IMG/VR virus record: IMGVR_UViG_2609459792_000007
DNA from: a virus
Taxonomy: Duplodnaviria > Heunggongvirae > Uroviricota > Caudoviricetes
Length of the DNA: 64,000 nucleotides
Direction: 5' to 3' (one strand)
Part shown: in pieces, positions 1,338 to 55,013 of the stretch
Numbering within the stretch: the first letter of the stretch is position 1
Layout of the letters: each line of letters begins with the position of its first letter
Translations under genes and position numbers: made by a program
The notes under the pieces: model-generated
What the model was told of the DNA's origin: nothing
The model's database searches: none
Seen by the model: only the letters and a program-made list of their open reading frames with translations

Positions 1338-2105
1338 TTATGCCGCGCTAACACTATGTTCAGTCCTAACCACCCCAACCTTCACAAAAGGGCTACCGTA
1401 GCTTGGTGGCTTCTTGATTAATTTGCCTACATACAGTTTTCTAATATGCTCATCGGCTATTCTGCCAACAAATTCATATCGTTTTGTGTCGGGGCCAAGA
1501 GCTATATCCCTTGTAAAGTACTGCTGAGAACCGGCTTTGACCCAGCATTCAATCTGATAAACTTCCATTATTAGCCCACCATATGTAGCGTAGGCATATT
1601 TGAGATTCTCGTCTCTTGGAACCTTTGCCCATACGCCACGCGTAGCTTCATATAATGCCAGAGCGGACATTCCTGATTTGTAGGTGCTGTTTAGCAGGAA
1701 GGCAAGACCGGCGTGCTCAGGAGCAATTTCAGTTTCCTCTTGCAGCACTAAGTGATGGTAGGCGTCCAGTGATATTCTGCCCATCATGGAACCACTTCCT
1801 CGAACCTTATTCGTAAGCTCTCCGACCCCCATAAGGTCGATGCATGTCGCCTCAACAAGTTTGGCTGTGGTTTCATCCATACCATGACGAAGAATATCTA
1901 TGCCTAATTTTTTATTAGCCAAAAGTTCTTTGATCCGCATGGATTTGGGAGAGTCATCGGGATACTTGATGTGATCGAGACAACGAGTCGATTTGCCTTT
2001 TCCTATGTAAAACGGTCTTTTCATCTTGTCTTCTGTATCATAGAGACAGTAAACATAGTATTTAGCCTTATCCAAGGATCTCGCGTATACCGATAAATCG
2101 TCCAT
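1338..2105 (-). CDS. GIY-YIG-like nuclease domain protein
   Basis: N-terminal YYVYCLYD...KRPFYIGKGKSTR resembles GIY-YIG motif; one of few minus-strand genes. Confidence 0.4.
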   Translation of the reverse strand: MDDLSVYARSLDKAKYYVYCLYDTEDKMKRPFYIGKGKSTRCLDHIKYPDDSPKSMRIKELLANKKLGIDILRHGMDETTAKLVEATCIDLMGVGELTNKVRGSGSMMGRISLDAYHHLVLQEETEIAPEHAGLAFLLNSTYKSGMSALALYEATRGVWAKVPRDENLKYAYATYGGLIMEVYQIECWVKAGSQQYFTRDIALGPDTKRYEFVGRIADEHIRKLYVGKLIKKPPSYGSPFVKVGVVRTEHSVSAA

Positions 2106-2215
2106 TATTGCATCTCTTAGCTACTGACTAATGCGTTCTATTTTACACATAAGTTTTTAATCAATTTAACAGGCTCAAAGTGTAGAGCTTCTGGGCGTCT
2201 AAGACGACAAGTTAT

Positions 2216-2271
2216 GCCTGCTTCTGTATATATAAATAATAAGTAACTTATTAAATATATACGGAAGCAGG
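2216..2271. repeat. Palindromic ~55-bp element, copy 1 (contains TATAAATA)
   Basis: gcctgcttctgtatatataaata...atatacggaagcagg; near-identical copy at 48466-48522. Confidence 0.6.
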
Positions 2272-2387
2272 TCTTTTAAAAGACACCACCAGAACAACTC
2301 CCTTCCGTTTCCACTTCCAAAAACTGCCACCAGTCGCTATCATCCGCTCATTGTGATAAGTAAGTAACTACCTACCAGGTGAGCCAC

Positions 2388-3128
2388 ATGAGCCAAATCT
2401 TTTTCGATACCATCGACAACGACCAGTACGACTTCATGACAGAGTGGAATACCGCTGTTATGGACAAGTGGGTCGCTGAAAACATTGGTTTGTCGCGCTG
2501 TAAAGACGAGGCTGAACTCTTCGAGACGAAGTGGTTTGATTACCGCGACATGCATCCTCTCATGGCCACCTGTCTTTTTACGGAGGCATACAAACGTCAG
2601 TACTCAAATATCATGCTGACGCACGGTCGCGAACACTTTGAAACAGCTCCGTTCACCACCGGGTTAAAACGCCTGCCTTATCAGGAGTTGTCGACTGCCA
2701 ATAAAACGTCGCTATGGAAAGCACGCCAGTTTGCGGATCGCTATTGCTGCTCATACGACTATTTTATCTCCACCGTTCTTTCCGCAGCTGCACGACGGCT
2801 GTGGGACAAGCTGCCGCGCCCACAGCATTTATGGCAGCCAGAGCTGGTTGAGATATTCGAAGAGAAATTAGCCAGACGCGCAACAACCCGTCTGGATGAC
2901 TCTCTGGTTAGTTTTAAGCATATGGGAGACATGCAGTTCAACCCGATTCAGGAAAGCTATTTTGAGTGGATTCTGGAGCGTTTACGCGCCATCCCCCGCA
3001 GCAAGCGCATACGCGCAATTTTCTCCGCTATCTGGCTAATGGAAATCGTTCCAGAGCGCCTTATTTCCGCCCACTTTCCAGAAGAACTGGAAGAAGCACG
3101 GCGGTTTATTGATCCCCTATCTAATTAA
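2388..3128 (+). CDS. Hypothetical protein
   Basis: ORF with conserved cacATG start context at 2388 (track start 2379 is GTG); sits directly upstream of helicase. Confidence 0.5.
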   Translation: MSQIFFDTIDNDQYDFMTEWNTAVMDKWVAENIGLSRCKDEAELFETKWFDYRDMHPLMATCLFTEAYKRQYSNIMLTHGREHFETAPFTTGLKRLPYQELSTANKTSLWKARQFADRYCCSYDYFISTVLSAAARRLWDKLPRPQHLWQPELVEIFEEKLARRATTRLDDSLVSFKHMGDMQFNPIQESYFEWILERLRAIPRSKRIRAIFSAIWLMEIVPERLISAHFPEELEEARRFIDPLSN

Positions 3129-3171
3129 CTAATACTAGAAAACAATTTGTTTAAAAAACAAAGGAAAGCAC

Positions 3172-4512
3172 ATGACCGAACTTTGCCATACAGGACGCGG
3201 GCTGTCCGAAGAGTTTGATGAAGATTTCCAGAACAGACTGACGGCATATTTTTGTCGTGATCACGAGTTTCTTACTCGTGCGGGAGATCTGGTTGTGCCT
3301 AGCCAATTTGCCAATGCGGCCAATGCCATATTGGTTAATATGGTTTCGGGCTATTACCGTATGTACAAGAGCGCGCCCTCTTCATCTGCAATTCTGGATA
3401 TGCTTAAGCGTGCGAAACGCGATAAGACTATCCGTGAGGAACTATTCGCCGATGTTGTTGCTGCGTTTAAGCGCATCCTTGCAGAAAAATTGTCCGATAC
3501 CTCGTACATGGTTGACCAGGTATCAACCTTCGCAAAAAGCGTAGCGTTTGATGATGCTCTGATTAAGGCTGCTGAACTGAAAGAGAAAGGCGACTTTCAG
3601 GGGGCGATGGCAATCATGGCCAAGGTTCAGCAGATTGGATCGAACGAAGCGACCGGAATCTATGACTACTACACCTCCGCAAGTGAGCGATTGAAAGCGC
3701 GTGAATATGAGGCTTCAGAGGAGTATGTGCCAAACAGCATTACAACTGGACTCCCTCTGCTCGATAGGTTGCTGTACCAAAAAGGCTGGGCGAAGCGTGA
3801 AATGGTGCTCTTCATGGGGTTCGCTAAATCCGGTAAATCGACCGCAATGGGTGAGTTTTCCATAAACGCAACGCTTGCTGGCTACAATGTTCTGTATCTC
3901 TCGCTGGAGGTTCACACCAACATTTTGTCCGACCGTTTTGATGCAAGATTGTCGGAGACGGAAATGTCCAAGTTGGTGGAACGGCGCGATGAAGTTCATC
4001 GTAAGTTGGCAGAGTTGGGAGCCTCTAAGGGGATTGGTAGTTTGTGGGTTGTTGAGCGTCCGTCAGGAAGTATGTCACCGGCAGATCTGGACCGTATGCT
4101 TAACAGCATGAAAGCCAACGGCATGGTGCCTGACATGGTTGTTGTCGACTACGCAGATTTGATGCGTGCCAGTTATGACCTTCGTGATGATCGCGCCAAC
4201 ATTCGTAGTATCTACACCGATTTACGTGCTCTTTATGACAAGCATAACGTTGCTGGTATCACGGCGTCGCAAACAAACCGTGAAGGTGGCGCGTCAGAAG
4301 TTGCCACAATGATGCACGCTGCCGACAACATCGAAAAAGTACGTATTGCTGACCTGGTAATAACGATCAACAAAACCGAAGAAGAAGAAGCGAAAGGAGA
4401 GGCTCGTCTCTACTTTGCTGGTTCGCGTAACCAGCAGGGAGGGATCAGCATTCGCGTTAAACAAAACCTCGAACAAATGCGCTTCATTGAGCGGATCTTA
4501 GACGTTACCTAA
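3172..4512 (+). CDS. DnaB-like replicative helicase (RecA-fold ATPase)
   Basis: Walker A GFAKSGKST, Walker B-like MVVVDYADL, C-terminal RecA-like core; conserved aaaggaaagcacATG start context. Confidence 0.75.
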   Translation: MTELCHTGRGLSEEFDEDFQNRLTAYFCRDHEFLTRAGDLVVPSQFANAANAILVNMVSGYYRMYKSAPSSSAILDMLKRAKRDKTIREELFADVVAAFKRILAEKLSDTSYMVDQVSTFAKSVAFDDALIKAAELKEKGDFQGAMAIMAKVQQIGSNEATGIYDYYTSASERLKAREYEASEEYVPNSITTGLPLLDRLLYQKGWAKREMVLFMGFAKSGKSTAMGEFSINATLAGYNVLYLSLEVHTNILSDRFDARLSETEMSKLVERRDEVHRKLAELGASKGIGSLWVVERPSGSMSPADLDRMLNSMKANGMVPDMVVVDYADLMRASYDLRDDRANIRSIYTDLRALYDKHNVAGITASQTNREGGASEVATMMHAADNIEKVRIADLVITINKTEEEEAKGEARLYFAGSRNQQGGISIRVKQNLEQMRFIERILDVT

Positions 4513-4593: not shown

Positions 4594-5775
4594 ATGAGCC
4601 TTTATGTTATATCAACATTTAGGTTGGTCACAATATTGCCTGTTAAAAGTGGAATTATCGTGAGCGAGCTGAAAGAGCTAATTACCGAATTAGATTTTGA
4701 ACAATGGTTGGACACTGAAGGTATCGTTTATCGACGTGGAGGCGTGAGTGCTCGCGGTCGTGAAGTGAATATCAAGGAGTGTCCGGTATGCGGCAGCTCC
4801 AACTGGAAGGTATATTTCAATCTGACCAGTGGCGTCGGCAAATGCTTTGCTGGTGATCATCCCGAAGAGATTCAGTTCAATAAGCTGGTCTTCCTCAAGC
4901 ACTACAGCGGTAAATCACGACGACAGTTCGAGGAATATGTGCAGAACGCTCTTCTTTCCCAGGGGTGGGCACCAAAGAAAGAAGAGCTAGTGCTTGCAAG
5001 CACAGTCGAGTTAGAGGGGCCAGTTGCACTCCCTCGTCATTACGAGCTTCCTATAGATGGCCGTCTTCCAGACTATCTGGTTGAACGAAACATATCACCT
5101 GAAATGGCAAAGTATTTTGACCTACGATACTGCGTCGAAGGCAAGCACGCTTATGTAGATCCGTATACAGATCAGGTAAAAGGGCAGATATTCGATATGC
5201 GAGTACTGATACCGGTTTACGATCTGGATGGGGTAATGAAGACATTTCAGGGACGAGACATTACCGGTACAGCAGAACGCCGCTACCTCTTTCCTATGCA
5301 GCTTCCAGCTTCAGGTAAATTTCTCTACAACGGCCATAATGCAGTCGGCAAACAGACTGTAGTTGTCTGTGAGGGTGCGTTCGATGTTATGGGGGTCAAA
5401 CGAGCTATTTTCGACGAAGAAACATTACGTGATTACGTGGAGCCAATAGGAACGTTCGGGATGCATCTATCTGGTAACACCACTCAGGATGCAGAAGATC
5501 AGTTAGGCGCGTTCCTGACGCTCAAGGCGCGTGGGTTACGTAATGTGATCATGATGTGGGATAGTGAAAAGCAAGCTATACGCAACACTATGGCCGCAGC
5601 CAGGCGACTGACCAGTATCGGTCTTAATGTCAAAGTTGCGTGTTTGGGTGAGGAAGGACTCGACCCGGGCGGTGCAACGCCAGAACAAATTATCAAAGCC
5701 TATTATCGGGCAAAACCGTATACCAAACAGTTGGAGTTGCAAAGCAAGGTTTTGGGCATTAAGGCGCTATCGTAA
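4594..5775 (+). CDS. DNA primase (zinc-ribbon plus Toprim)
   Basis: CPVCGSS...C..GDH zinc-binding motif; Toprim-like VVVCEGAFDV and MWDSE; start chosen at cacATG 4594 rather than track start 4522. Confidence 0.65.
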   Translation: MSLYVISTFRLVTILPVKSGIIVSELKELITELDFEQWLDTEGIVYRRGGVSARGREVNIKECPVCGSSNWKVYFNLTSGVGKCFAGDHPEEIQFNKLVFLKHYSGKSRRQFEEYVQNALLSQGWAPKKEELVLASTVELEGPVALPRHYELPIDGRLPDYLVERNISPEMAKYFDLRYCVEGKHAYVDPYTDQVKGQIFDMRVLIPVYDLDGVMKTFQGRDITGTAERRYLFPMQLPASGKFLYNGHNAVGKQTVVVCEGAFDVMGVKRAIFDEETLRDYVEPIGTFGMHLSGNTTQDAEDQLGAFLTLKARGLRNVIMMWDSEKQAIRNTMAAARRLTSIGLNVKVACLGEEGLDPGGATPEQIIKAYYRAKPYTKQLELQSKVLGIKALS

Positions 5776-7172: not shown

Positions 7173-8491
7173 AAAAGTTGATCGCACTTAAGCATAAGCT
7201 GGACGAAATGAAAGCTATGGGAACCAATGCAAAAAAAGAGGCATTGGCCAACATGGATGACTTTGAACAAAGCATGGTTTCATTGATGCTCAACCCTTTC
7301 ATCCGTTTTGGGGTAAAGAAATACAAAGTGGCAGAGCCGCTTAGTGAGTCCGTCCCAAGTGACGAAAAAGCCATTGATGTACTGAATAAGCTGGCCTCTC
7401 GCGAGCTGACGGGGAACGCAGCAATAGTTGCTGTTGAGTCTATCGTAGCGTCAATGTGCGCCGATGGGCAGGACGTGTTCCGTCGTTTCCTCTTAAAAGA
7501 CCCGAAAGCAGGTGTTGGGATTAGCCTATGCAACAAGGTTTTTGAGAATCCCATTCCGAAATTCGAGGTGCAGCTGGCGTCACCGTATAAAGAAAAAGGC
7601 GACAAATACCCCTTCAAGCCAAATCCTAAAGCAAAATGGCCGATGATTGGCAGTCTTAAGCTCGATGGTTTGCGAGTAATTTGCGAGGTTATTGTTGACG
7701 AGGAAGAGGTTAACTTCCTTTCTCGTACTGGTAATCCAATCACGTCTCTCGATCACCTAAAGCCAGCAATGCTCGAATTAGGCAAACTTTCAGGCCACAA
7801 ACACATCTTCTTCGATGGTGAAGGAACAGCCGGTTCATTTAACCAGTCCGTATCTGCATTGCGCAAAAAGAACGTGCAGGCAATTGGCGCTATTTATCAT
7901 GTTTTCGACTTCTTCCTACCGGAATGGCGGGCACAGGCTAAATCCAAAGAGTATGCAAAGACAGGTATGAAGCTGAAAGAGCGCCTGGCTATGCTGGTGG
8001 CGTTGTTCAAAAACGATCGCAGTGAAGGCTACGGACAAGACATTCACCTGCATCCGTTCTATATCATCCATAGCCACGAAGATTTCATCGAACGCTTTAT
8101 GAAACGCCTGGACGATAACGAAGAAGGGGAGATGGGCAAAGATCCGAACTCTGTTTACGAGTTTAAACGTACCCGCAGCTGGTGGAAGTTAAAAGACGAA
8201 GATTCAGAAGATGGTGAAATTATCGACTTTGAGCCGGGCGACCCGGACTCTGGTTTTGCCAACACACTTGGAAAAATTGTTATTCGTCTTGAAAACGGCG
8301 TCATCGTTCGTGCGAGCGGCATTAAGCATAAATATCTGGACGAGATCTGGAACAACAAAGAGAAGTACCGTGGTCGTATTGTTGAGGTTCATTGTCACGA
8401 GAAAACGCCGGATGGCAGCTTACGCCACCCACGACTGAAATGGCCGCGTTGCTTACGCGATACAGAAGATCGAATCGGAGATAAAGAATGA
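7169..8491 (+). CDS. ATP-dependent DNA ligase
   Basis: Adenylation motif KxDG in SLKLDGLRV; size 440 aa. Confidence 0.75.
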   Translation: MKKLIALKHKLDEMKAMGTNAKKEALANMDDFEQSMVSLMLNPFIRFGVKKYKVAEPLSESVPSDEKAIDVLNKLASRELTGNAAIVAVESIVASMCADGQDVFRRFLLKDPKAGVGISLCNKVFENPIPKFEVQLASPYKEKGDKYPFKPNPKAKWPMIGSLKLDGLRVICEVIVDEEEVNFLSRTGNPITSLDHLKPAMLELGKLSGHKHIFFDGEGTAGSFNQSVSALRKKNVQAIGAIYHVFDFFLPEWRAQAKSKEYAKTGMKLKERLAMLVALFKNDRSEGYGQDIHLHPFYIIHSHEDFIERFMKRLDDNEEGEMGKDPNSVYEFKRTRSWWKLKDEDSEDGEIIDFEPGDPDSGFANTLGKIVIRLENGVIVRASGIKHKYLDEIWNNKEKYRGRIVEVHCHEKTPDGSLRHPRLKWPRCLRDTEDRIGDKE

Positions 8492-8667
8492 TGCTCGGCT
8501 GGATGATTGCATTTTTAGCGGTTGGTTTTTTAATCGGTATTGTGGTGATGTCCAGTTGCATCAATGACTACATTAAAAGCGGTGTTATAGAACGACGCGG
8601 TCGTATTTATCGCATTGTAGAAATAACCCACACAGTGAAGGAGATTAAGGATGATCGTATTAAGTAA
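8488..8667 (+). CDS. Small membrane protein (paralog A)
   Basis: 59-aa ORF below track cutoff; hydrophobic segment AFLAVGFLIGIVVM then ...YRIVEITHTVKEIK; paralog of ORF at 8863. Confidence 0.4.
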   Translation: MMLGWMIAFLAVGFLIGIVVMSSCINDYIKSGVIERRGRIYRIVEITHTVKEIKDDRIK

Positions 8668-8866
8668 GCGGGAGAAGGAAACGCTTCATGAAATCAGTAA
8701 GTGGCCGGAGTTCCCTGAGTACTGGAAGCCTAAAACGCGGGCTAAGTTAGAGCGGTTAGGGTTGGTTGCAAACGTTTCTGAAACGTGGTGTTCGGCCAAC
8801 TACCAGTTAACTGATAAAGGGAAAGTATTGCTACAGCAATTAGTAGAATCAGGAGCGTTAAAATGA
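8651..8866 (+). CDS. Hypothetical small protein
   Basis: 71-aa ORF between paralogous membrane ORFs. Confidence 0.4.
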   Translation: MIVLSKREKETLHEISKWPEFPEYWKPKTRAKLERLGLVANVSETWCSANYQLTDKGKVLLQQLVESGALK

Positions 8867-9015
8867 TTCCATACATCTCATTAGCTTTTATGGGTGGCTT
8901 CCTTATTGGCTTCGGCATCTGTCGTGATTTAATTAAGCAGGAACTTAAAACCAAAACACTGTGCATCGGAAAGCGTGTGTATCGGGTAGTTCATGAAACA
9001 AAGGTTAGAAAATGA
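8863..9015 (+). CDS. Small membrane protein (paralog B)
   Basis: 50-aa ORF; AFMGGFLIGFGI then ...VYRVVHETKVRK, parallel to 8488 ORF. Confidence 0.4.
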   Translation: MIPYISLAFMGGFLIGFGICRDLIKQELKTKTLCIGKRVYRVVHETKVRK

Positions 9016-9302
9016 GCAATTTAACTTCTTGGGACTGGTGGTTGGTCACCTATTTCTTAGCGGCTGGAGTAGCATTCGCCTTTTACGTAGGTCAGTTAGT
9101 CGTAAAACTGTTGCTGATTAAATTTGCTAGTCATAAACGTATCGATGATGGTCTGTGGCGTCTTGGCACCTTGGTGGAAACTCGCTACGGGCAACTTAAG
9201 GAGAACGAAACCATTACTATCCAAGCGAAACGATTCACTGCCACCATCACAAGAACACCTAGTCGTAGAGTGGCCTTGATCAAAAAAGTCACAACCGAAT
9301 AA
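9012..9302 (+). CDS. Small membrane protein
   Basis: 96 aa; N-terminal TM segment WWLVTYFLAAGVAFAFYV. Confidence 0.4.
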   Translation: MSNLTSWDWWLVTYFLAAGVAFAFYVGQLVVKLLLIKFASHKRIDDGLWRLGTLVETRYGQLKENETITIQAKRFTATITRTPSRRVALIKKVTTE

Positions 9303-10081
9303 AAATACAATGATAAGTATTTACTTACTTATCTTATATGTATAAGATGACTTTGTTTTCGTTGAGACGCGACTGTTTGAACTTAAATACAAGTGCAAAC
9401 GAAGAAGTCTATCTGGCAGTAGCCTAATAAGCCAAACACCAGCGAGGTCAGTTTCCAGCCTCGTTACCGAAATGGGACACACTGAGCGAGTGTGATTGCA
9501 GAACGCAGGAGGGAACATTCATGTTCCCTCCGATGAAGTAACAGAATGGGCGGTTGGTATATTTTCAACTCCATATGACTCCCGGATTCTTAGCCACTGA
9601 CCGCCCATTCTGTTACGTCATTTTGTTCAATTATGTCGTTTATACTGGGTTAAAAAGCGGCGACGTAGCCCGGCTGGTATGGTCAGCCAGCACACAACGT
9701 TGAGGCCATTACATTTTTATCAATTCTAAGGTTCTATTCACAGAGATACCGGCGAGCGTTGATATGTAACATGTTGGGCAAACATTCAATCGGAGTAGTG
9801 GCCTCAACGTTGTGAAAATAGGATAGTTGTGTAGGTTTAACCACTGTTGCCATTGGTACCTGTTTTCACAACAAATGATTCCATACATCACATTGTATAA
9901 ATTACAAAGTAGGTGCTGTCCTCAGAAACATCATCTACTTAAATAATTTGCCTTCTACTATTGAGCGAAGTCGAAAGCGTCTGGCACTAACGAAAAGTGC
10001 AAGTAGCGGTGCGTTTCCTGGCAGAAACTAACACCGCCGCGATTGGCACTGTTGAGTAATAAATACTGGCAGTGCTGAATT

Positions 10082-10156
10082 GATGGTGTAGCTCAGCGGT
10101 AGAGCAGTTGGCTGTTAACCAACTGGTCGGTGGTTCGAATCCACCCACCATCGCCA
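10082..10156 (+). tRNA. tRNA-Asn (anticodon GTT)
   Basis: Hand-folded cloverleaf: acceptor gatggtg/caccatc, D-stem gctc/gagc, anticodon stem gttgg/ccaac with loop ctGTTaa, T-arm ggtgg-ttcgaat-ccacc, CCA end. Confidence 0.85.
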
Positions 10157-10161
10157 ATTTA

Positions 10162-10248
10162 GGGGAGTTAGTCCGTAGAGGTAGCGGGGTAGACTGTAAA
10201 TCTACTGTCATGGAGACTCGGGTGGTTCGACTCCATCACTCCCCACCA
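10162..10248 (+). tRNA. tRNA-Tyr (anticodon GTA), long variable arm
   Basis: Acceptor ggggagt/actcccc, anticodon stem gtaga/tctac with loop ctGTAaa, T-arm ggtgg-ttcgact-ccatc, CCA; D-arm not cleanly canonical. Confidence 0.6.
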
Positions 10249-10252
10249 AATT

Positions 10253-21522: not shown

Positions 21523-22551
21523 ATGTCTAAGACATTACTTGATTTGCTTAACAAAACTCGTGAAGACATTGCTGCCAAACGTGGTAACAACGTTGATCTG
21601 ACTCGCTTAAAAGACGGCGTCAACTATATCCGCATCTTCCCGAATAAAGACGACCCAAACGGTAAGTTCTTCCAGACTTTCGGTATGCACTACGTTAAGT
21701 ATCAGAACGAGGAAGGTAAAGAAGCAACCAACGCTTATATTTGTGAGCAACATACTCACGGTCGCGCTTGTCAGCTATGCGAAATGGTTATGGAAGGTCG
21801 CGCTCGTCACAAGGGTAACAAAGCAATGGAAGAACGCATCGGTCAAATGCGTGCCACTCCTCGCTACCTGGTCAACGGCATTCTTTCTGCTCGTGAGGAT
21901 TTCGCAGATGCTGAGAAATGCCAGTTAATCGAGCTACCGTCTACTGTATTCGATGATATCTGCAAAGCAATCACCGAAGACATCGCTGATGATATCGGTA
22001 ATCCACTGAGCAAAGAGGAAGGCTACGCATTCCTGATTAAACGTACTGGCTCTGGTCGCGATACCAAATATGACGTCTCGCCTAAGCGTAAAGTCTACAA
22101 AGGCGATATCGAAGATAAATTCTGGAACACCCAGCATGATCTGATCGCATACGCAAATCAGGCTGATGAAACTCGTCTTCTGTCGACAGTTCGCACTATG
22201 GGTCGTCTGATTGGCATCGCTGCACCAACTGCCGCAGCATCTGCACCAGCAATTTCCTCAACCGCGAAAACATCGGCTGCGGCACTACCTGGATTTGGCT
22301 CTGTCACTGGTCATACGGAGGGTGCGACTGCTGTAGCAACCGCTCACACCCCAGCTTCTGAACCAACCAGTCTGGTTGATGAAGAAATCCTCCGTGCCGT
22401 TGAAACTGAATTTAAACCAGAAGCAAGTTCCGCTGCCGTTGCCGTATCAGTCAAAGAGTCTGAAGCAGTCGCAGCGACATCTGTAGCAACCGCATCTGCG
22501 ACGGAAGATGAAGGTCTGGATGACCTACTGAGAGAGCTGGACTCTCTGTAA
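21523..22551 (+). CDS. gp32-like single-stranded DNA-binding protein
   Basis: His/Cys cluster CEQHTHGRACQLCE (zinc-site-like), Ala/Ser/Thr-rich linker, acidic C-terminal tail DEGLDDLLRELDSL. Confidence 0.5.
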   Translation: MSKTLLDLLNKTREDIAAKRGNNVDLTRLKDGVNYIRIFPNKDDPNGKFFQTFGMHYVKYQNEEGKEATNAYICEQHTHGRACQLCEMVMEGRARHKGNKAMEERIGQMRATPRYLVNGILSAREDFADAEKCQLIELPSTVFDDICKAITEDIADDIGNPLSKEEGYAFLIKRTGSGRDTKYDVSPKRKVYKGDIEDKFWNTQHDLIAYANQADETRLLSTVRTMGRLIGIAAPTAAASAPAISSTAKTSAAALPGFGSVTGHTEGATAVATAHTPASEPTSLVDEEILRAVETEFKPEASSAAVAVSVKESEAVAATSVATASATEDEGLDDLLRELDSL

Positions 22552-48859: not shown

Positions 48860-49443
48860 TAGATAAGTACAAACTATTCATAAAGTGAATTGTAAGTGCT
48901 AAGATCTGATAGTTTCCAGTCGTAGACTGGAGACTCGACCTGATGGGTGGGGGTAAGCGTCACTGGCGTCAGGTTTAAAAAAGCTCACTACCAGCGTAGA
49001 ACCGGTGCCGTTTAGGTGTCGGGGAAGGGGGAACCAAAGTGAGCGGAGACAAGGGTCACTTTATGATTGTCGAGTCTGGGGTGTTTCGAGAGGTTGAATC
49101 CAGTACTCCCCTTCATAAAGTGTGGGAAGATCTCGGTTCTGGGGTGCTGTCATCCATAACTTCCCAAGTCTAAGCTGGCAGTAGACTTAGGCCATAACTT
49201 TTCAGGTTATGAAACGACCAGGTTGGTGAGGGATTTTTATACTCACCTCCCTGGGAGAGTATTACCTGAAAAGACAACCTCTCACTTCGTTCGAGGTGAA
49301 CTTCACTCACTTCGTTCGTTCAGTTCAGGTTTATAAAAACCTGTTCTGGGAAGTAATTTGTTTATTTTAATAATTATTAACACGCACGCGTGTGCGCACG
49401 CGCGAGGAAAAAAATCGGCGCGGCGCTTGATTCAGGAGTTTAT

Positions 49444-50034
49444 ATGACGACGAAGACACCAGCCCGATCGCAAGAAAAAACTCGCAAAAAAGCCAAAAAC
49501 AAAACTTCTCCCCGCACCAATTCCACAACGCCTGTCGTAGAGTTCAATCCCCAGCTTAAAACCGTGAAAATCTTCAGTGATGGCTCTTGCCTTAAAAATC
49601 CGGGTGGCCCGGGCGGTTACGGTATAGTTCTCCAGTATCGTGGTGAGGAACGCGAGTTCTCAGATGGTTTTCATAGCACCACCAATAACCGCATGGAGAT
49701 GATGGGGGCACTTATCGGGCTGGAGCGTTTGAAATATCCATGCAACGTTATTTTGCACTCTGATAGCCAGTATCTGAAAAACGGCATGACACTGTGGATG
49801 AAATGGTGGAAACGCAATGGATGGATGACTTCTGACAAAAAACCGGTAAAGAATGTTGATCTGTGGAAGCGTCTGGATGAGGCCGCAAGTCGACATAATG
49901 TTCGCTGGAAGTGGGTTAAAGGCCACGCCGGGCATCGTGAAAATGAAATATGTGATCGACTCGCGAAGATCGCAGCTTTTTCCGCAGCAGATATGCCTCA
50001 CAAGAAAGATATTGGTTTTGTTTATAACAAATAG
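49444..50034 (+). CDS. Ribonuclease HI
   Basis: [36 protein letters not shown]; start at ATG 49444 with RBS aggag; basic N-terminal extension. Confidence 0.85.
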
Positions 50035-50182
50035 TAAGTAAGTCTTTACCTATCATTTTAAATCATGTATCTTATCGGCGTCAGGATGACAATGTGTCGG
50101 TAAGACACAGTTCCAGGATGGAACGAGAAAGGCGGCTGGCAATCGCCAGCCGCAACTCTTTCTGACACTGGATGGAGTCCAC

Positions 50183-50677
50183 ATGGCACGTCAAACCTAT
50201 TTCACTTCTGCAACTAAACGTCCTCGTTCACTACGTCAAATTTTGGCCGAATTATTTAGCGGTCGTGTTCTGTCACGTCTTGATGAACTAGAGACTGCCG
50301 TTCGGTTGCTGAATGAACGTTTAGATAAGCAAGCGTCAGTTGTTGCGAACGTGGGGGCGATTGTTACCTCTGGTTCTTCACGCGAAGCGAAAAGTACACG
50401 GCCTTTAGTGAAGGAGAAAAACAACAAGGACAGTTCGAATGGAAAATTTTCAAAGAAAGAGGCTGAAACCAATGGCCTACGTTCTCATTATAGTTTCACT
50501 GGCGACGATAGCCGTTCCAGCCGGCCAGAGCCTTTTGATGCCGGGTTCATCCATCACCACACCTCCGTCGACGACAATTACCACCACTCCAGTAGAGCGT
50601 CCTGTCACTCTGGATGGGATGACGGTGGATGCGATACCTCAAGTTCATCCAGTTACTCAGGATCATGCTGTGACTAA
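50183..50677 (+). CDS. Hypothetical protein (low-complexity C-terminus; extent uncertain)
   Basis: ORF overlaps alternative-frame membrane ORF 50439-50690; only one frame is likely genuine over the shared stretch. Confidence 0.25.
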   Translation: MARQTYFTSATKRPRSLRQILAELFSGRVLSRLDELETAVRLLNERLDKQASVVANVGAIVTSGSSREAKSTRPLVKEKNNKDSSNGKFSKKEAETNGLRSHYSFTGDDSRSSRPEPFDAGFIHHHTSVDDNYHHSSRASCHSGWDDGGCDTSSSSSYSGSCCD

Positions 50678-50690
50678 GGCGGTTGTATGA
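50439..50690 (+). CDS. Putative small membrane protein (alternative frame)
   Basis: N-terminal TM segment AYVLIIVSLATIAVPA, Thr/Pro-rich tail; overlaps 50183 ORF. Confidence 0.3.
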   Translation: MENFQRKRLKPMAYVLIIVSLATIAVPAGQSLLMPGSSITTPPSTTITTTPVERPVTLDGMTVDAIPQVHPVTQDHAVTKAVV

Positions 50691-50884
50691 ACTGGTTTTC
50701 AAATCACTTTGGAAAAACTTGGCTGGCGATTCTGGCTTTCATAGCTCTCATGGCCGCCGGTTGGGTATCGAACATTGTAAAACTCGTTTGCTCTGGTGAT
50801 CTCCAGTTTCAGGCTGGTATGACCTTGGCTCGTGTTGTTGGGATTTTTGTTTTTCCAGTCGGTTCGGTACTTGGTTATTTCTGA
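50687..50884 (+). CDS. Small two-TM membrane protein
   Basis: 65 aa; hydrophobic segments WLAILAFIALMAAGW and VVGIFVFPVGSVLGYF. Confidence 0.4.
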   Translation: MNWFSNHFGKTWLAILAFIALMAAGWVSNIVKLVCSGDLQFQAGMTLARVVGIFVFPVGSVLGYF

Positions 50885-50977
50885 CGGTTGTTAGTGCATA
50901 TGCATTGACCGTCTTTTCGTAAGCAATTCATGTAACTAGAAAACAGCTTGTTTTAACAAATAACAAAAGGAAAGCAC

Positions 50978-51403
50978 ATGTTAGGTTTATTCAAAAAGAA
51001 AACTCGTAAAGCTGTTATCGAGGTCAAAAAAATGGAGAACCGAGATGCGGTTGAAGCCACCGTGTGGGGCGCGTACATGATCTCCTATGCCGATGGCACA
51101 TGCGACGCAAAGGAAATTTCCATTCTTGAGAAAACAATTGCAGCTCTGCCTGCGTTTTCTCCGTTTGCTGGTGAGATTGCCCAAATGAGCGCCAATATCC
51201 GTGCTCAATACGAAGCCTCACCGCGCCGCGCTAATGCCCAGGCTTTACGTGAGCTGGCTGATGTGGCCGGGACTAATGATGCAGTAGATGTACTGTGTCT
51301 GTGCCTTGATATTGCCGACCAAGACGGTATTGGCGAACAAGAAGAGCTGGCCCTGAAAAAGATCGCACAGGCGCTTCAGTTGTCACTGGATGCTTATCTC
51401 TAA
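50978..51403 (+). CDS. TerB-like domain protein
   Basis: 141 aa; ADG..D..E...L..A.. pattern and C-terminal DQDGIGEQEELALKKIA typical of TerB-like folds; assignment from motif only. Confidence 0.45.
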   Translation: MLGLFKKKTRKAVIEVKKMENRDAVEATVWGAYMISYADGTCDAKEISILEKTIAALPAFSPFAGEIAQMSANIRAQYEASPRRANAQALRELADVAGTNDAVDVLCLCLDIADQDGIGEQEELALKKIAQALQLSLDAYL

Positions 51404-51561
51404 TGCTTGAGAGATTCCGGCTTGTGACCGTCATTGCTCTTCTGGTGATGGCGGTGTTGGTGGATTTTACGGGAAAGATGATGTCTGTCATTTCTGATGG
51501 CGTCCTCATTGGTCTGGCGATCTACTTCGCTTATCCGCTAGTCCGTAAAGCAACGTGTTAA
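51403..51561 (+). CDS. Small membrane protein
   Basis: 52-aa ORF below track cutoff; overlaps TerB-like stop (TAATG); followed by hairpin gggccaaatggccc. Confidence 0.35.
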   Translation: MLERFRLVTVIALLVMAVLVDFTGKMMSVISDGVLIGLAIYFAYPLVRKATC

Positions 51562-51700
51562 TGACAAGGGCCAAATGGCCCTTGTGTTTCGTTGACCGAA
51601 ATAGAGAGTTTGCACCTTTACGTTTAGCTTGCTCCCCTTTTATGCCACATCACAATAAAGCCAATAAGAAAACAACTTGTTTAAGCATTAGGAAAAACAC

Positions 51701-52270
51701 ATGTGCAAGAAATGCAAAGCGATAGCTGATGAACAAAACGCCTTATTCGAAGAAATGGATGCTAATGAACTGGTCAAAATGTTAGCCATTCTTCGAGGAA
51801 TAGAAGACGTTTCCATATTTGAGAGAGTGGTTACAGCACTTAATTTTGAGTCCACCTTTGAAGAGCCAACTCAGGTTGTAGCTTTAGCACATCATTTCGG
51901 TGTTCATTATCTTGCTGAAAAAGAGCGCGCTGATAAGTTGCAGGCGACTTTGGATATGGTGAGCGAGACTCAACGAACTGATGACACTAACAAGAGTGAG
52001 GCGATTATTGCCAGCAAAGATCGTGAAATTGCTGGGCTTAAATCCTCTCTAACGATGTTGATGTCTGCGTTCAATCTTATGTCTTCTCAGGCGGGTTATA
52101 AAATGCCATCACTAAACAGCGATGATCCGATGGCCGTTCGTCAGCTTTTGGGAGCAATGGCCGACCAACTCGACGACACAAAGAGTCGGCTTGAAGACAT
52201 GATGCGTGAGTTAAGCCATCGACATAACCTCGCAACACAGCCACACAAAGCCTTTCAAAGCTCTAATTGA
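51701..52270 (+). CDS. Hypothetical protein (N-terminal CxxC)
   Basis: 189 aa; conserved cacATG start context; terminator-like hairpin after stop. Confidence 0.45.
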   Translation: MCKKCKAIADEQNALFEEMDANELVKMLAILRGIEDVSIFERVVTALNFESTFEEPTQVVALAHHFGVHYLAEKERADKLQATLDMVSETQRTDDTNKSEAIIASKDREIAGLKSSLTMLMSAFNLMSSQAGYKMPSLNSDDPMAVRQLLGAMADQLDDTKSRLEDMMRELSHRHNLATQPHKAFQSSN

Positions 52271-52325
52271 TCTGATATGGCCGCATGATCGGCCATATTG
52301 TGTTGATAAAAAACAAGGATGAAAA

Positions 52326-52607
52326 ATGGCATACGGTACAGGGATTTACAACAATAAAGGAATTAACGTTACTGGCTTCCTTACTCCTATTTTTTTTCTT
52401 GATCGATTTACTGCGTCATCAGGCTCTAAGACGTACTCCAATCCGCCACCGGGTAAATCGCTACATGCCGTGTGGTCATTGATGCCTCTTAACAACGACA
52501 ACTACATTAATTTACCTGTTCCAACAGTTACTATTAATGGAAATACGGTTAGTTGGTCAAATTTATATACGGGGCTTGGTTCTTACATATACACATACTG
52601 GGGATAA
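52326..52607 (+). CDS. Hypothetical Asn/Ser/Thr/Tyr-rich protein (AT-rich island)
   Basis: 93-aa ORF in low-GC segment. Confidence 0.35.
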   Translation: MAYGTGIYNNKGINVTGFLTPIFFLDRFTASSGSKTYSNPPPGKSLHAVWSLMPLNNDNYINLPVPTVTINGNTVSWSNLYTGLGSYIYTYWG

Positions 52608-52609
52608 TT

Positions 52610-53224
52610 ATGTTCGGGATGTCAATTACTCAATCAGATGGAAGTTTGTGGATGAGTCCAGAATTTACTCCGCAAAATCTGATTAATAAAGGGACAATGT
52701 CTACATCTAAAGGTTCTGTTTTTCAAACATCAATCCCATCAAACAAATCATGCTTTTTCTTCATAAAAAGCAGTAATAAGGCGAACATGATGTTTATTCA
52801 TGAGCATAGTAACGGATACAATGCTCTCAGATTGCATCAGGTAAATGGTAGCCCCGGAACAATAACAGTTTATGCTTTTTCTGATATGGTGTTACCACAT
52901 TCTGGCTATGGCATTGCCATGTATAACAGCGCAGGCGCAATGGTGTATCACGGTGAGATGATGCCCCTTGATGCGAAACTTATCACTATTTCTGACCCTC
53001 AATTTACAATAGATATGGGGTATCCATGTGCGGTAATGCCTGCTATGGTTGGGGTATATAACTATAGACGAACCGATTACGACAGACCTGTCTATGTAAC
53101 AATGACAGGTGCAACTGGAAACCAAGTATATAACGGTCAATGGTATTCCGGTAATGTCACATGGGATATTAAGAAGATTTATACAAACAAAATTCTGGTG
53201 ATAAATACCTCCAAGTATGATTAG
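52610..53224 (+). CDS. Hypothetical Asn/Ser/Thr/Tyr/Gly-rich protein (AT-rich island)
   Basis: ORF starting at ATG 52610 (track start 52553 runs back into the upstream gene); low-GC codon usage. Confidence 0.4.
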   Translation: MFGMSITQSDGSLWMSPEFTPQNLINKGTMSTSKGSVFQTSIPSNKSCFFFIKSSNKANMMFIHEHSNGYNALRLHQVNGSPGTITVYAFSDMVLPHSGYGIAMYNSAGAMVYHGEMMPLDAKLITISDPQFTIDMGYPCAVMPAMVGVYNYRRTDYDRPVYVTMTGATGNQVYNGQWYSGNVTWDIKKIYTNKILVINTSKYD

Positions 53225-53327
53225 CCAATGCCTTTATTTGAAGGATTGCCTGTTTATTTCTATTTAGTACCTTTTCATTTTTGAAATAATTGCACCATTA
53301 AACAAATCACTTCTTAATGGTGCAATT

Positions 53328-55013
53328 ATGAATACAGCCCTTTCCATCATCGACGATGCCAACTCAAACACTGCTATCGACTATCGGCAGGAAATGAACG
53401 TCATCCACGAAATTGTGGCCGAGTGCGAGAAAGAGATCGCCTTCATGTATCAGGTACACGACTTCGTTTATGGCGACGAACGCCACAACATGATTAATCG
53501 CCTGCTGAGACTAAACCATCGACCAGATGAAGATCGCTCGCGTTTAAATCGAGGTTGGTTGGATAAAGTCGATCTGGAATGGGTGAAACAGAATATTTGG
53601 GCCGAGTACTGGAGGAAGGTCACGGACATGACTAACGTTTTGCTGATCATGCCAGCTTCCCGTCGAGATGAGTGGCGCGAGCAGTTTATAGAGGGCAAAC
53701 AGGAAGTCATCAAAACTGACAGAACCGGCTACCAGATGAAGGTTAAAGAGTTCGTTGGTGTACCGGAGTTCAAAGCAGAAACGGTCATACCCACGATGCT
53801 TAATTTGCTGAATGACAGGCACAAATATCTCTCTGAGCGCGTGTATGGCTTGTTTAAGGCGCTGAGTCCTGCGCACAAGACAAATAAGACAAACGGTTTC
53901 AGCGAACGTCTGATAATCGCTGACTGCATTTCTGATTTCTGGCGGGACAGCGTTAGTGTGAACTATCGCAAAGAGGACTATATCGACGATCTGCGTGTCT
54001 TGCTTCATTTCTTCGCGCACAAAGAATTTATTACCATCAACCGCACTGCTGAGGTGCTATCAGCTGCGTATCGGGCAAACGACTGCCAGACCGGTGACTG
54101 GATGAACGTCGATGGAAATCTAATGCGCGTGAAGATGTTCAAGAACGGCAACGTTCACTTTGAAATACATCCTGACGTGGCCTGGAAGTTGAATGAGGTG
54201 CTGGCTTACAGTATGCCTGCTGCAATCCCCGCGCCATGTCGCACCGCGCCAAAAACACGGGCACCAAAGCAGTTCGGTTTAATCCAGAAGACGATCTCCG
54301 TGCCGGTTCGCACTGCGCTTCGTGACGGGCGATTGAGCAAAGACAAAGGCGTATGGTACTTCTCTGATTCAGCTCTCCAGAAGTCGCAGGTGGAAGAGCT
54401 TGAGCGCACACTGAGCTTCATTGGCGGCGTGCAGGAGAAAAAGCACTGGCAGTTCCCGTATGACATCGACCATACGCTAAATACGATTGTGGCTACCGGT
54501 TTAATACCGGATACAAAATCACACCAGTTCTACCCTACCCCACGCTTGATTGCTGAGTACGTTGCCAGAGCCACTGAATTGAAGCCTGGTGAGAAGCTGC
54601 TGGAGCCTCAAGCCGGACGTGGGGATCTTCTGGCCTATATTAACGCCGATCTGGAAGATGTTACCTGCATAGAAATCGCATCTCTCTTCGCTGATATCCT
54701 GCGTGGAAAAGGGTATACGAACACGATTTGCTGCGACTTCATAAAGTGGTCTGAGGACAACGCAGGTTATCAGTTCGACAAAATCGTTATGAACCCGCCG
54801 TACTCGCTTGGTCGTCATAAAGAGCACACGCTGGCTGCGCTGGGGCATCTGAAAGTCGGCGGGCGTCTTGTAGCAGTATTGCCGGGCACTGCGCCAATAC
54901 TGGACTGGATGACGATGGATAATTACGTTTATGCCAGAGGGAAGTCGTTTACCAACGAGTTTGAAGACACAGGGATCACAGTCAGCGTATACGTTTTCAA
55001 ACGCGTTAAATGA
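53328..55013 (+). CDS. DNA methyltransferase, NPPY-type, with large N-terminal domain of unknown function
   Basis: C-terminal AdoMet motif LEPQAGRGDL followed by IVMNPPYS; ~400-aa N-terminal region unassigned. Confidence 0.6.
   Translation: MNTALSIIDDANSNTAIDYRQEMNVIHEIVAECEKEIAFMYQVHDFVYGDERHNMINRLLRLNHRPDEDRSRLNRGWLDKVDLEWVKQNIWAEYWRKVTDMTNVLLIMPASRRDEWREQFIEGKQEVIKTDRTGYQMKVKEFVGVPEFKAETVIPTMLNLLNDRHKYLSERVYGLFKALSPAHKTNKTNGFSERLIIADCISDFWRDSVSVNYRKEDYIDDLRVLLHFFAHKEFITINRTAEVLSAAYRANDCQTGDWMNVDGNLMRVKMFKNGNVHFEIHPDVAWKLNEVLAYSMPAAIPAPCRTAPKTRAPKQFGLIQKTISVPVRTALRDGRLSKDKGVWYFSDSALQKSQVEELERTLSFIGGVQEKKHWQFPYDIDHTLNTIVATGLIPDTKSHQFYPTPRLIAEYVARATELKPGEKLLEPQAGRGDLLAYINADLEDVTCIEIASLFADILRGKGYTNTICCDFIKWSEDNAGYQFDKIVMNPPYSLGRHKEHTLAALGHLKVGGRLVAVLPGTAPILDWMTMDNYVYARGKSFTNEFEDTGITVSVYVFKRVK

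Follow-up and report, generated by a model that had tools for sequence, protein, structure and literature searches.

Siphophages whose central tail fibre resembles lambda J can encode their receptor-binding protein (RBP) at a locus of its own that is open to exchange, called the "bona fide RBP locus" by Maffei et al. (2021; PMC8594841). The BASEL phage Bas04 FritzSarasin, for example, is BtuB-dependent (PMC8594841), while binding to LptDE has been demonstrated only for the Rtp44/RBP-Oeko family (PMC12685063). Host-range determinants have been called poorly understood in the SSU5-like (pSLy3-type) phage-plasmids, which are frequent in E. coli and Shigella and may bear genes for resistance (PMC9600943). 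The two adjacent genes considered here, ORF1 and ORF2, lie in a 64,000-nt stretch ("the window") of the IMG/VR virus record IMGVR_UViG_2609459792_000007. Around these genes the window is 99–100% identical to many non-mobilisable E. coli plasmids of ~107–112 kb and to the phage records Cyrano (pLF82) and CMS-2020a; judged by sequence, these relatives are SSU5-like phage-plasmids and the window is part of one from E. coli. The pair was first taken, in an initial annotation made from the DNA sequence alone, for a moron, i.e., a cargo cassette. The reading favored here is that ORF1 and ORF2 probably form a two-chain receptor-binding (host-range) module, exchanged horizontally and displaced from the tail genes, and are not cargo carried for the lysogen. 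The case for this draws on homology, on gene order in other phages, on a fold similar to that of a solved RBP, on the type of J tip, on mutual exclusion between the pair and a homologous one, on allele replacement and purifying selection, and on silence in the lysogen.

Homologues of ORF2 were found by tblastn in 326 phage records. In the phages examined the two genes always occur together, within the host-recognition part of the tail module. In JenP1 (Nonagvirus) the pair is convergent with the gene for "central tail fiber J"; in tonn (Warwickvirus) it is again convergent with J and is preceded by a lipobox lipoprotein gene; in vojen (Hanrivervirus) the order is J, a 101-aa protein, a 213-aa protein, and Cor; and in Stx2 phage 86 (Traversvirus) the pair comes directly after a tail-fibre gene and before lom. 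It adjoins the gpJ homologue in JenP1, tonn, and vojen, but not in the element studied here. Homology between the window and JenP1, tonn, or Stx2-86 runs from the ATG of ORF1 to the stop codon of ORF2, with nothing outside the two coding sequences. [quoted passage not shown] The allele of Bas04 FritzSarasin is the Warwickvirus one, and ORF2 is 40–41% identical to the Warwickvirus protein over its full length; at that level the nearest receptor-typed relatives of the pair are BtuB-dependent, more distant ones are FhuA-dependent, and the receptor of the window pair need not be BtuB. The pair alleles of Stx phages are closer, at 61–63% identity. The paper on FhuA treats the J-like protein as the RBP, and the pair was not analyzed there. 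Literature searches for a published receptor for JenP1, for PhiR41_1 (a pair carrier deposited as a phage, with E. coli K-12 MG1655 as its named host), or for SSU5-like E. coli phage-plasmids gave nothing usable.

Two further observations concern possible links to BtuB. In the tonn stretch L004, the first gene of the Warwickvirus locus (positions 5451–5720) encodes an 89-aa protein with a signal peptide and an LTGC lipobox, likely a BtuB-directed superinfection-exclusion lipoprotein analogous to Cor, Llp, and Rtp45. An exclusion lipoprotein is found beside the pair in tonn and vojen and is absent in JenP1, making it a frequent but not universal feature of the locus. A cobalamin link was also considered because the Cyrano annotation names the genes at window positions 13711–17150 "dimethylbenzimidazole phosphoribosyltransferase" and "cobalamin synthetase." It was rejected: the Pfam matches (CobT, with a VWA C-terminal domain, and an AAA_5 ATPase) do not fit those names, and the products are not demonstrably B12 enzymes.

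In PHROGs, ORF1 matches phrog_557 ("outer membrane protein," E 5e-29) and ORF2 phrog_425 ("membrane associated protein," E 2e-72). Neither ORF has a signal peptide, lipobox, transmembrane helix, or hydrophobic N-terminal segment (maximum 19-residue Kyte-Doolittle means of 0.94 and 1.10 for ORF1 and ORF2, with 1.76 for the tonn lipoprotein as a control), so that these names have no basis in the sequence, and no outer membrane protein family in Pfam or NCBIfam matches either. Searches of NCBIfam and PADLOC also gave no match for either ORF. A Pfam DUF6453 match for ORF2 (15.4 bits, E 0.012, over 62 residues) was discarded as below the 25-bit gathering threshold, and DUF6453 matched neither the concatenated ORF1 and ORF2 nor the 316-aa relative P0080.

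That relative belongs to a set of single-chain homologues which combine both proteins. An exhaustive profile search gave 114 representatives, including proteins of ~307–325 aa. In profile-profile comparisons the ORF1 family falls on residues 3–80 and the ORF2 family on residues 101–310 of this single-chain family, whose profile in turn matches both ORFs in the window. The single-chain forms, among them P0080 and proteins of Pantoea phage Vid5 and of Pectobacterium phages, thus resemble ORF1 over their N-terminal ~80 residues and ORF2 over residues ~100–310, but the domains are fused in one polypeptide and identity to ORF2 is just ~22–27%. In Vid5, the match overlaps features named "hypothetical protein" and "tail fiber protein." At the level of sequence families the pair can be described as one protein split in two, or the single-chain form as a fusion. 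The junction between the two genes also points to a tight connection: the pattern GGGG(A/G)-T(A/G)A-NN-ATG, which places a Shine-Dalgarno (SD) sequence for ORF2 within the last codons of ORF1, is kept in JenP1, tonn, and Stx2-86, and from its layout ORF1 and ORF2 can be taken to be translationally coupled. Together, the split/single-chain relation and coupled translation speak for the two chains working as one unit.

AlphaFold2 (AF2) gave all-beta models for both proteins with moderate confidence (ORF2, predicted local distance difference test [pLDDT] 80.3 and predicted template modeling score [pTM] 0.75; ORF1, pLDDT 79.7). The predicted fold of ORF2 matches that of the LptDE-bound RBP of phage Oekolampad (Bas18_0025; PDB 9RPT chain C). 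A Foldseek search of BFVD with ORF2 returned only uncharacterized phage proteins. The initial annotation had described the pair as cargo, which does not agree with homologues that are tail-module genes, located where several phage groups have their receptor-binding locus.

The J protein and tail fibre of the element itself lie outside the 64 kb, and J was therefore read in relatives. Cyrano J has 1575 aa, and over its last ~190 residues it shares 38–39% identity with the C-terminal ends of J in JenP1 and tonn, and 31% with that of Oekolampad; it ends at the same point as these (...VLRVRIGRL vs. ...VLRVQIGRITGSW). J proteins with this short tip (...VLRVRIGRL/GLL) were found in Cyrano, NZ_CP020118.1, pEC881_2, PhiR41_1, and NZ_CP027369.1, and all align to the tips of JenP1, tonn, and Oekolampad. 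Plasmid pHCM2 of S. Typhi has no pair, either at the locus studied here or after the tail fibre, and has a J with a ~110-aa C-terminal extension instead. This mirrors the rule in Drexlerviridae, where J extensions replace the RBP locus. Among E. coli SSU5-like plasmids (stretches L005, L009, L015, and L016) J is a mosaic, with the N-terminal ~800 and the last ~115 residues 92–100% identical and a central repeat region (residues ~800–1450) at 43–86% identity and differing in length by 40 residues.

Plasmid pEC881_2 of E. coli lacks the pair at the position it has in the window (the "remote" pair), but has a distant homologous pair (84 and ~202 aa, with 34% and 24% identity) right after its lateral fibre gene. 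This "tail-adjacent" pair shares the two-protein architecture, the overlapping stop and start codons, and the plasmid family, and goes with a 99% identical J tip; it differs in sitting within the tail module and in almost never accompanying the remote pair. For its larger gene (stretch L009, positions 9618–10226), an ATG overlapping the stop codon of the small gene (TAATG) gives MYGSKIYRSDGKVWMSP..., matching the conserved ORF2 N-terminus MFGMSITQSDGSLWMSP, and the annotated start is probably too far downstream.

Tail-adjacent pairs are present in 73 PLSDB records, and a chimeric query of both pairs matches 186 records at 193 places. It follows that ~120 plasmids have the remote pair and at most seven have both. 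(A count of 175 plasmid matches overstates the carriers, the query behind it having taken in flanking backbone.) In PLSDB, 180 records have a J C-terminus with the short tip. With independent pairs one would expect 41–47 records to have both (Fisher p <1e-25 whichever plausible total is used, each plasmid counting as an independent case). The remote and tail-adjacent pairs are thus nearly mutually exclusive, and in E. coli SSU5-like plasmids either the remote pair or a homologous pair elsewhere is almost always present.

The remote pair itself occurs in more than one allele. Across it NZ_CP020118.1 is 100% identical to the window, while PhiR41_1 is 94–100% identical in the flanks and 80–87% in the pair. 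Synonymous divergence (dS) between these alleles is 0.67–0.84 for the pair and 0.09 for the flanking genes, a 7–9-fold difference, and the ratio of nonsynonymous to synonymous divergence (dN/dS) for the pair is 0.075–0.10. These values indicate old alleles that recombination has exchanged, with purifying selection acting on both proteins. The proposal of a horizontally acquired unit therefore holds up: the pair is discrete, missing from pEC881_2 and pHCM2 at this site and patchy among related elements generally, with homology confined to its two coding sequences and dS far above that of its flanks.

A possible history and mode of action can be outlined. The module would have been gained by recombination in an SSU5-like E. 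coli phage-plasmid, its closest allele now being that of the 9g-like phages JenP1 and JenP2. It would be expressed in lytic growth through coupled translation and read-through transcription, the latter proposed because no promoter is predicted upstream. The two chains would then assemble, ORF1 supplying the N-terminal or adaptor domain and ORF2 the receptor-binding body of the single-chain relatives, and the assembled pair would act in trans, docking non-covalently on the short C-terminal tip of J. By binding an outer-membrane beta-barrel protein as terminal receptor it would set the host range. Incorporation into the virion, docking on J, and receptor binding are all inferred for this pair. 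A bolder version, which seems rather doubtful, is that of a plug-in host-range module: virions would be retargeted to another outer-membrane protein through exchange of two genes (0.9 kb) in a hot spot for cargo while the tail operon stays untouched, the 93-aa chain would be a detachable adaptor that lets differing receptor-binding bodies dock on one invariant J tip, and the JenP1/Stx-like allele would recognize a receptor other than the four linked to loci of this type up to now (FhuA, BtuB, LptD, and YncD), e.g., BamA. BamA is reportedly the receptor of short-tailed Stx phages with a 61% identical pair.

Several points weigh against a receptor-binding role on J. The likeness of ORF2 to the Oekolampad RBP is at the fold level only, with 11% identity; it comes from AF2 models built on shallow alignments (14 and 12 sequences); and hhalign comparisons of the Oekolampad RBP with the ORF1, ORF2, and single-chain alignments gave probabilities below 1%, so that the link to the solved RBP is purely structural. 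No relevant match came from PDB profile searches with either the ORF2 or the 316-aa family. For the pair's own family the support in the literature consists of correlation and AlphaFold 3 modeling, the LptD-type RBP being the only one solved. The J tip (last ~115 residues) is 97–99% identical whichever pair or allele is present, i.e., tip and allele do not covary. The exclusion test takes plasmids as independent despite their clonal relatedness, with counts from search summary lines. No cognate exclusion lipoprotein (Cor/Llp/Rtp45-like, or any lipobox ORF) was found beside the window pair. The pair is not beside J or other tail genes, and its late co-expression with them is assumed. Finally, in pEC881_2 and the Stx phages the gene ahead of the pair is one for a lateral or short tail fibre, and the pair might be attached to that fibre.

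This last point leads to the best-surviving alternative, that the pair is an accessory of the lateral tail fibre (e.g., a distal adhesin and its partner or chaperone) provided in trans to whichever side fibre is present. In pEC881_2 the homologous pair is directly 3′ of a 1175-aa lateral fibre gene, the gene before the pair in Stx2 phage 86 is named "tail fiber protein," and in JenP1 the lateral-fibre genes lie on the other side of the pair from J. Remote-pair plasmids have different fibre modules, either P1 S-like or a fibre with a gp38-like adhesin. However, a single remote pair goes with at least three unrelated lateral-fibre modules, as would hardly be expected of a partner specific to a fibre tip. 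The pair of tonn and vojen lies right beside J, apart from the lateral fibre genes; which allele is present follows the terminal protein receptor (BtuB, or FhuA with Cor) and not the glycan-binding lateral fibres; and the fold match of ORF2 is to a J-tip RBP. A fibre accessory is considered unlikely on this balance, and a receptor-binding module acting on J is preferred.

The setting of the pair in the window bears on whether it could be cargo. The features of the locus are listed in Table 1.

Table 1. Features at and around the ORF1–ORF2 pair, in window coordinates.
Feature	Position	Strand	Description
Upstream flanking gene	51701..52270	+	189 aa, phrog_5508, no known function; backbone, outside the module
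Left hairpin	52266..52307	+	9-bp perfect core (52275-52283/52290-52298), in the 55-nt spacer 5′ of ORF1
SD-like AAGGA	52315..52319	+	6 nt 5′ of the ORF1 ATG, read from sequence
ORF1	52326..52607	+	93 aa, small all-beta subunit, phrog_557; matches residues ~3-80 of ~316-aa single-chain relatives
Coupling junction GGGGA-TAA-TT-ATG	52600..52612	+	ORF2 SD within the last ORF1 codons; stop-start gap 2 nt
ORF2	52610..53224	+	204 aa, ATG start, all-beta, phrog_425; matches residues ~101-310 of single-chain relatives
Right inverted repeat	53286..53329	+	Perfect 16 bp, arms 53286-53301/53314-53329; covers the SD region and the A and T of the DUF4942 methyltransferase start codon
Downstream flanking gene	53328..55013	+	DUF4942 / N6-adenine-type DNA methyltransferase, backbone

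For ORF2 the length from the ATG is used; a 223-aa version from a TTG is a mechanical reading. By profile search the window has a single copy of the pair. The ~8 kb on each side contain no annotated tail gene; in the collinear Cyrano (108379 bp) J ends at 22417 and the pair starts at 81933. Overall the pair is roughly 43–60 kb from tail genes, between an RNase H/TerB block and the DUF4942 methyltransferase gene.

In pEC881_2 and pHCM2, which lack the cassette, a canonical terminator comes after the 189-aa gene, with the methyltransferase gene immediately behind it. Klebsiella relatives have another ORF, of 689 aa and on the reverse strand, at the cassette site. The left hairpin (dG -17.2, z -4.0 vs. 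shuffles) stands where the cassette-less plasmids have a canonical GGGGGC-GAAA-GCCCCC-T5 terminator, and the last ~20–45 nt of the 189-aa gene differ from those relatives along with the terminator. It has no U-tract and was not called by a consensus terminator scan. The right inverted repeat is also stable as RNA (dG -19.1, z -5.3 vs. shuffles). It is present in the cassette-less pEC881_2, with a compensating G:C to A:T change across the arms, and degenerate in pHCM2; being found without the cassette, it belongs to the methyltransferase leader. It has the look of a hairpin for translational control of the methyltransferase, or of a palindromic operator for it. The initial annotation had placed the pair between hairpin terminators, as in a typical cargo cassette. 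Two stable hairpins are indeed there, but with the left one lacking a U-tract and the right one part of a leader, the layout is largely coincidental. Neither was called as a terminator, and no sigma-70-like promoter is predicted upstream of the pair.

The interval from ~50180 to 53330, between the RNase H gene (49390–50034) and the DUF4942 gene, is a cargo hot spot of SSU5-like elements. In E. coli it contains a TerB/TciA-like gene (50978–51403) and a DUF3927/TciB-like gene (51403–51561), and in pHCM2 a Rha regulator. The DUF3927/TerB neighborhood has been described as an insertion hot spot for resistance genes in pSLy3-type phage-plasmids (Pfeifer et al., 2022).

The composition of the pair was reported correctly at the outset, as a ~1 kb stretch more AT-rich than its neighbors encoding two adjacent Asn/Ser/Thr/Tyr-rich, low-charge proteins of 93 and ~205 aa. 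Over 52280–53330 (1051 nt) GC content is 0.380, against 0.458 for the window, or ~2.9 standard deviations below the mean of 1051-nt windows (sd 0.027); just 0.1% of sliding windows reach so low a value, and the lowest of all is at 52300. Of the 55 plus-strand ORFs with 120 aa or more, none has a lower GC than ORF2, and third-position GC is 0.37 vs. a mean of 0.46. Asn, Ser, Thr, and Tyr make up 41% of ORF1 and 32% of ORF2, compared to 19% in the background, and Asp, Glu, Lys, and Arg 6.5% and 12.7%, compared to 26.6%. The pair has a GC content of 0.38–0.42 in every host phage examined, however, vs. 0.43–0.51 for the host genomes, so that the composition is a trait of the family and not only a mark of foreignness. 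Elsewhere in the window, at 10082–10639, is a cluster of four tRNA genes (Asn-GTT, Tyr-GTA, Thr-TGT, Ser-TGA) for the four residues overrepresented in ORF1 and ORF2. The commonest Thr codon in the pair is ACA (13/26) and the commonest Ser codon TCA (9/29), fitting the Thr-TGT and Ser-TGA anticodons. The cluster may supply tRNAs for host-recognition proteins rich in these residues.

Expression in a lysogen can be judged from the close relative Cyrano, whose genes CYRAN_88 and CYRAN_89 have 98.7% nucleotide identity to the window. In transcriptomes of the LF82 lysogen (PMC9928086), which cover lysogenic conditions only, they have ~7.6 and 11.4 normalized units in LB, like their neighbors and at background, and they are not among the 13 Cyrano morons listed for LF82 (PMC9928086). 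In the non-LB columns CYRAN_89 (the ORF2 homologue) is at log2 5.2–6.5 and CYRAN_88 (the ORF1 homologue) at 2.7–3.9 (PMC9928086 S1 Table; Cyrano stretch L001, positions 8126–9024). A difference of this kind is unexpected for a coupled pair and may reflect an internal promoter in ORF1 or differential RNA stability.

These observations make it improbable that the pair is a true moron, maintained for the lysogen's benefit (e.g., in superinfection exclusion or surface modification), as the initial annotation proposed. The atypical GC content, the patchy presence, the distance from structural genes, the database names suggesting membrane proteins, and a hot spot where relatives carry Rha, the 689-aa ORF, or resistance genes are what would be expected of one. 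Yet no promoter is predicted for the pair; its Cyrano counterparts are transcribed at background in the LF82 lysogen and do not figure on the moron list; without a signal peptide, lipobox, or transmembrane helix the products of the pair have no route to the envelope; and PADLOC found no defense match. Its homologues sit in tail modules where a separate lipoprotein (Cor, tonn gp65, Rtp45) does the exclusion, and it is nearly always present in one form or the other, the remote and tail-adjacent pairs all but replacing each other. A functionless hitch-hiker, tolerated as a remnant of recombination with a 9g-like or Stx-like phage, would suit the distance from any functionally related gene and the likelihood that some carriers, such as NZ_CP020118.1 with its IS1 in J, are defective phages, but is very hard to reconcile with two ORFs intact in ~120 plasmids, a dN/dS of 0.075–0.10 across alleles at dS values up to 0.84, a conserved coupling junction, and a carrier (PhiR41_1) deposited as a phage with MG1655 as host. 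In NZ_CP020118.1 (stretch L010, positions 2043–4277) an IS1 transposase gene lies directly 5′ of a 466-aa C-terminal J fragment; J there appears to be interrupted by IS1, and this copy is probably a defective phage.

If the pair is a displaced receptor-binding module, the host range of SSU5-like phage-plasmids would be predictable from a 0.9-kb locus now labeled "hypothetical" or "outer membrane protein," and RBP tools that look only beside tail genes will miss it. Virulent T1-like and 9g-like phages, Stx-converting phages, and phage-plasmids would be connected by one exchangeable pool of host-recognition genes. The split and single-chain forms also suggest which part docks and which part binds, which would be useful for engineering.

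Of the described systems, the LptD-binding RBPs of small siphophages, Oekolampad RBP and Rtp44 (Dunbar et al., 2025; PMC12685063), have in common with the pair the fold of the ORF2 model. They differ in being a single chain (321 aa for Oekolampad), in having no detectable sequence similarity, and in being paired with a periplasmic exclusion lipoprotein (Rtp45/SE-Oeko). The Warwickvirus locus (Drexlerviridae; tonn gp65–gp67 and its Bas04 counterpart; PMC8594841; preprint 10.64898/2026.04.02.716166) is closer, with both families in the same order, the same stop/start coupling, 41% (ORF2) and 52% (ORF1) identity, and J proteins sharing a C-terminal tip domain. Unlike the window pair, which has no lipoprotein and is tens of kb from J, it is convergent with J and begins with a lipobox lipoprotein, presumed to be an exclusion factor. 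The closest allele outside the phage-plasmids is gp22–gp21 of JenP1, JenP2, and BRET (Nonagvirus, Queuovirinae), at 78% nucleotide identity and 83% (ORF2) and 76% (ORF1) amino acid identity. This too is a two-gene unit without a lipoprotein and with a GC content of 0.38, but it lies between J and the lateral-fibre genes of virulent 60-kb phages. Separately encoded and exchanged RBP modules for J-type tips are thus an established mechanism, with structural proof for the LptD type and correlation for the others. What appears to be undescribed, in the literature reached, is that the pair is present in SSU5-like phage-plasmids, its location at a hot spot for cargo and distant from the tail operon, its near-perfect alternation with a homologous tail-adjacent pair, and the relation between its split and single-chain forms.

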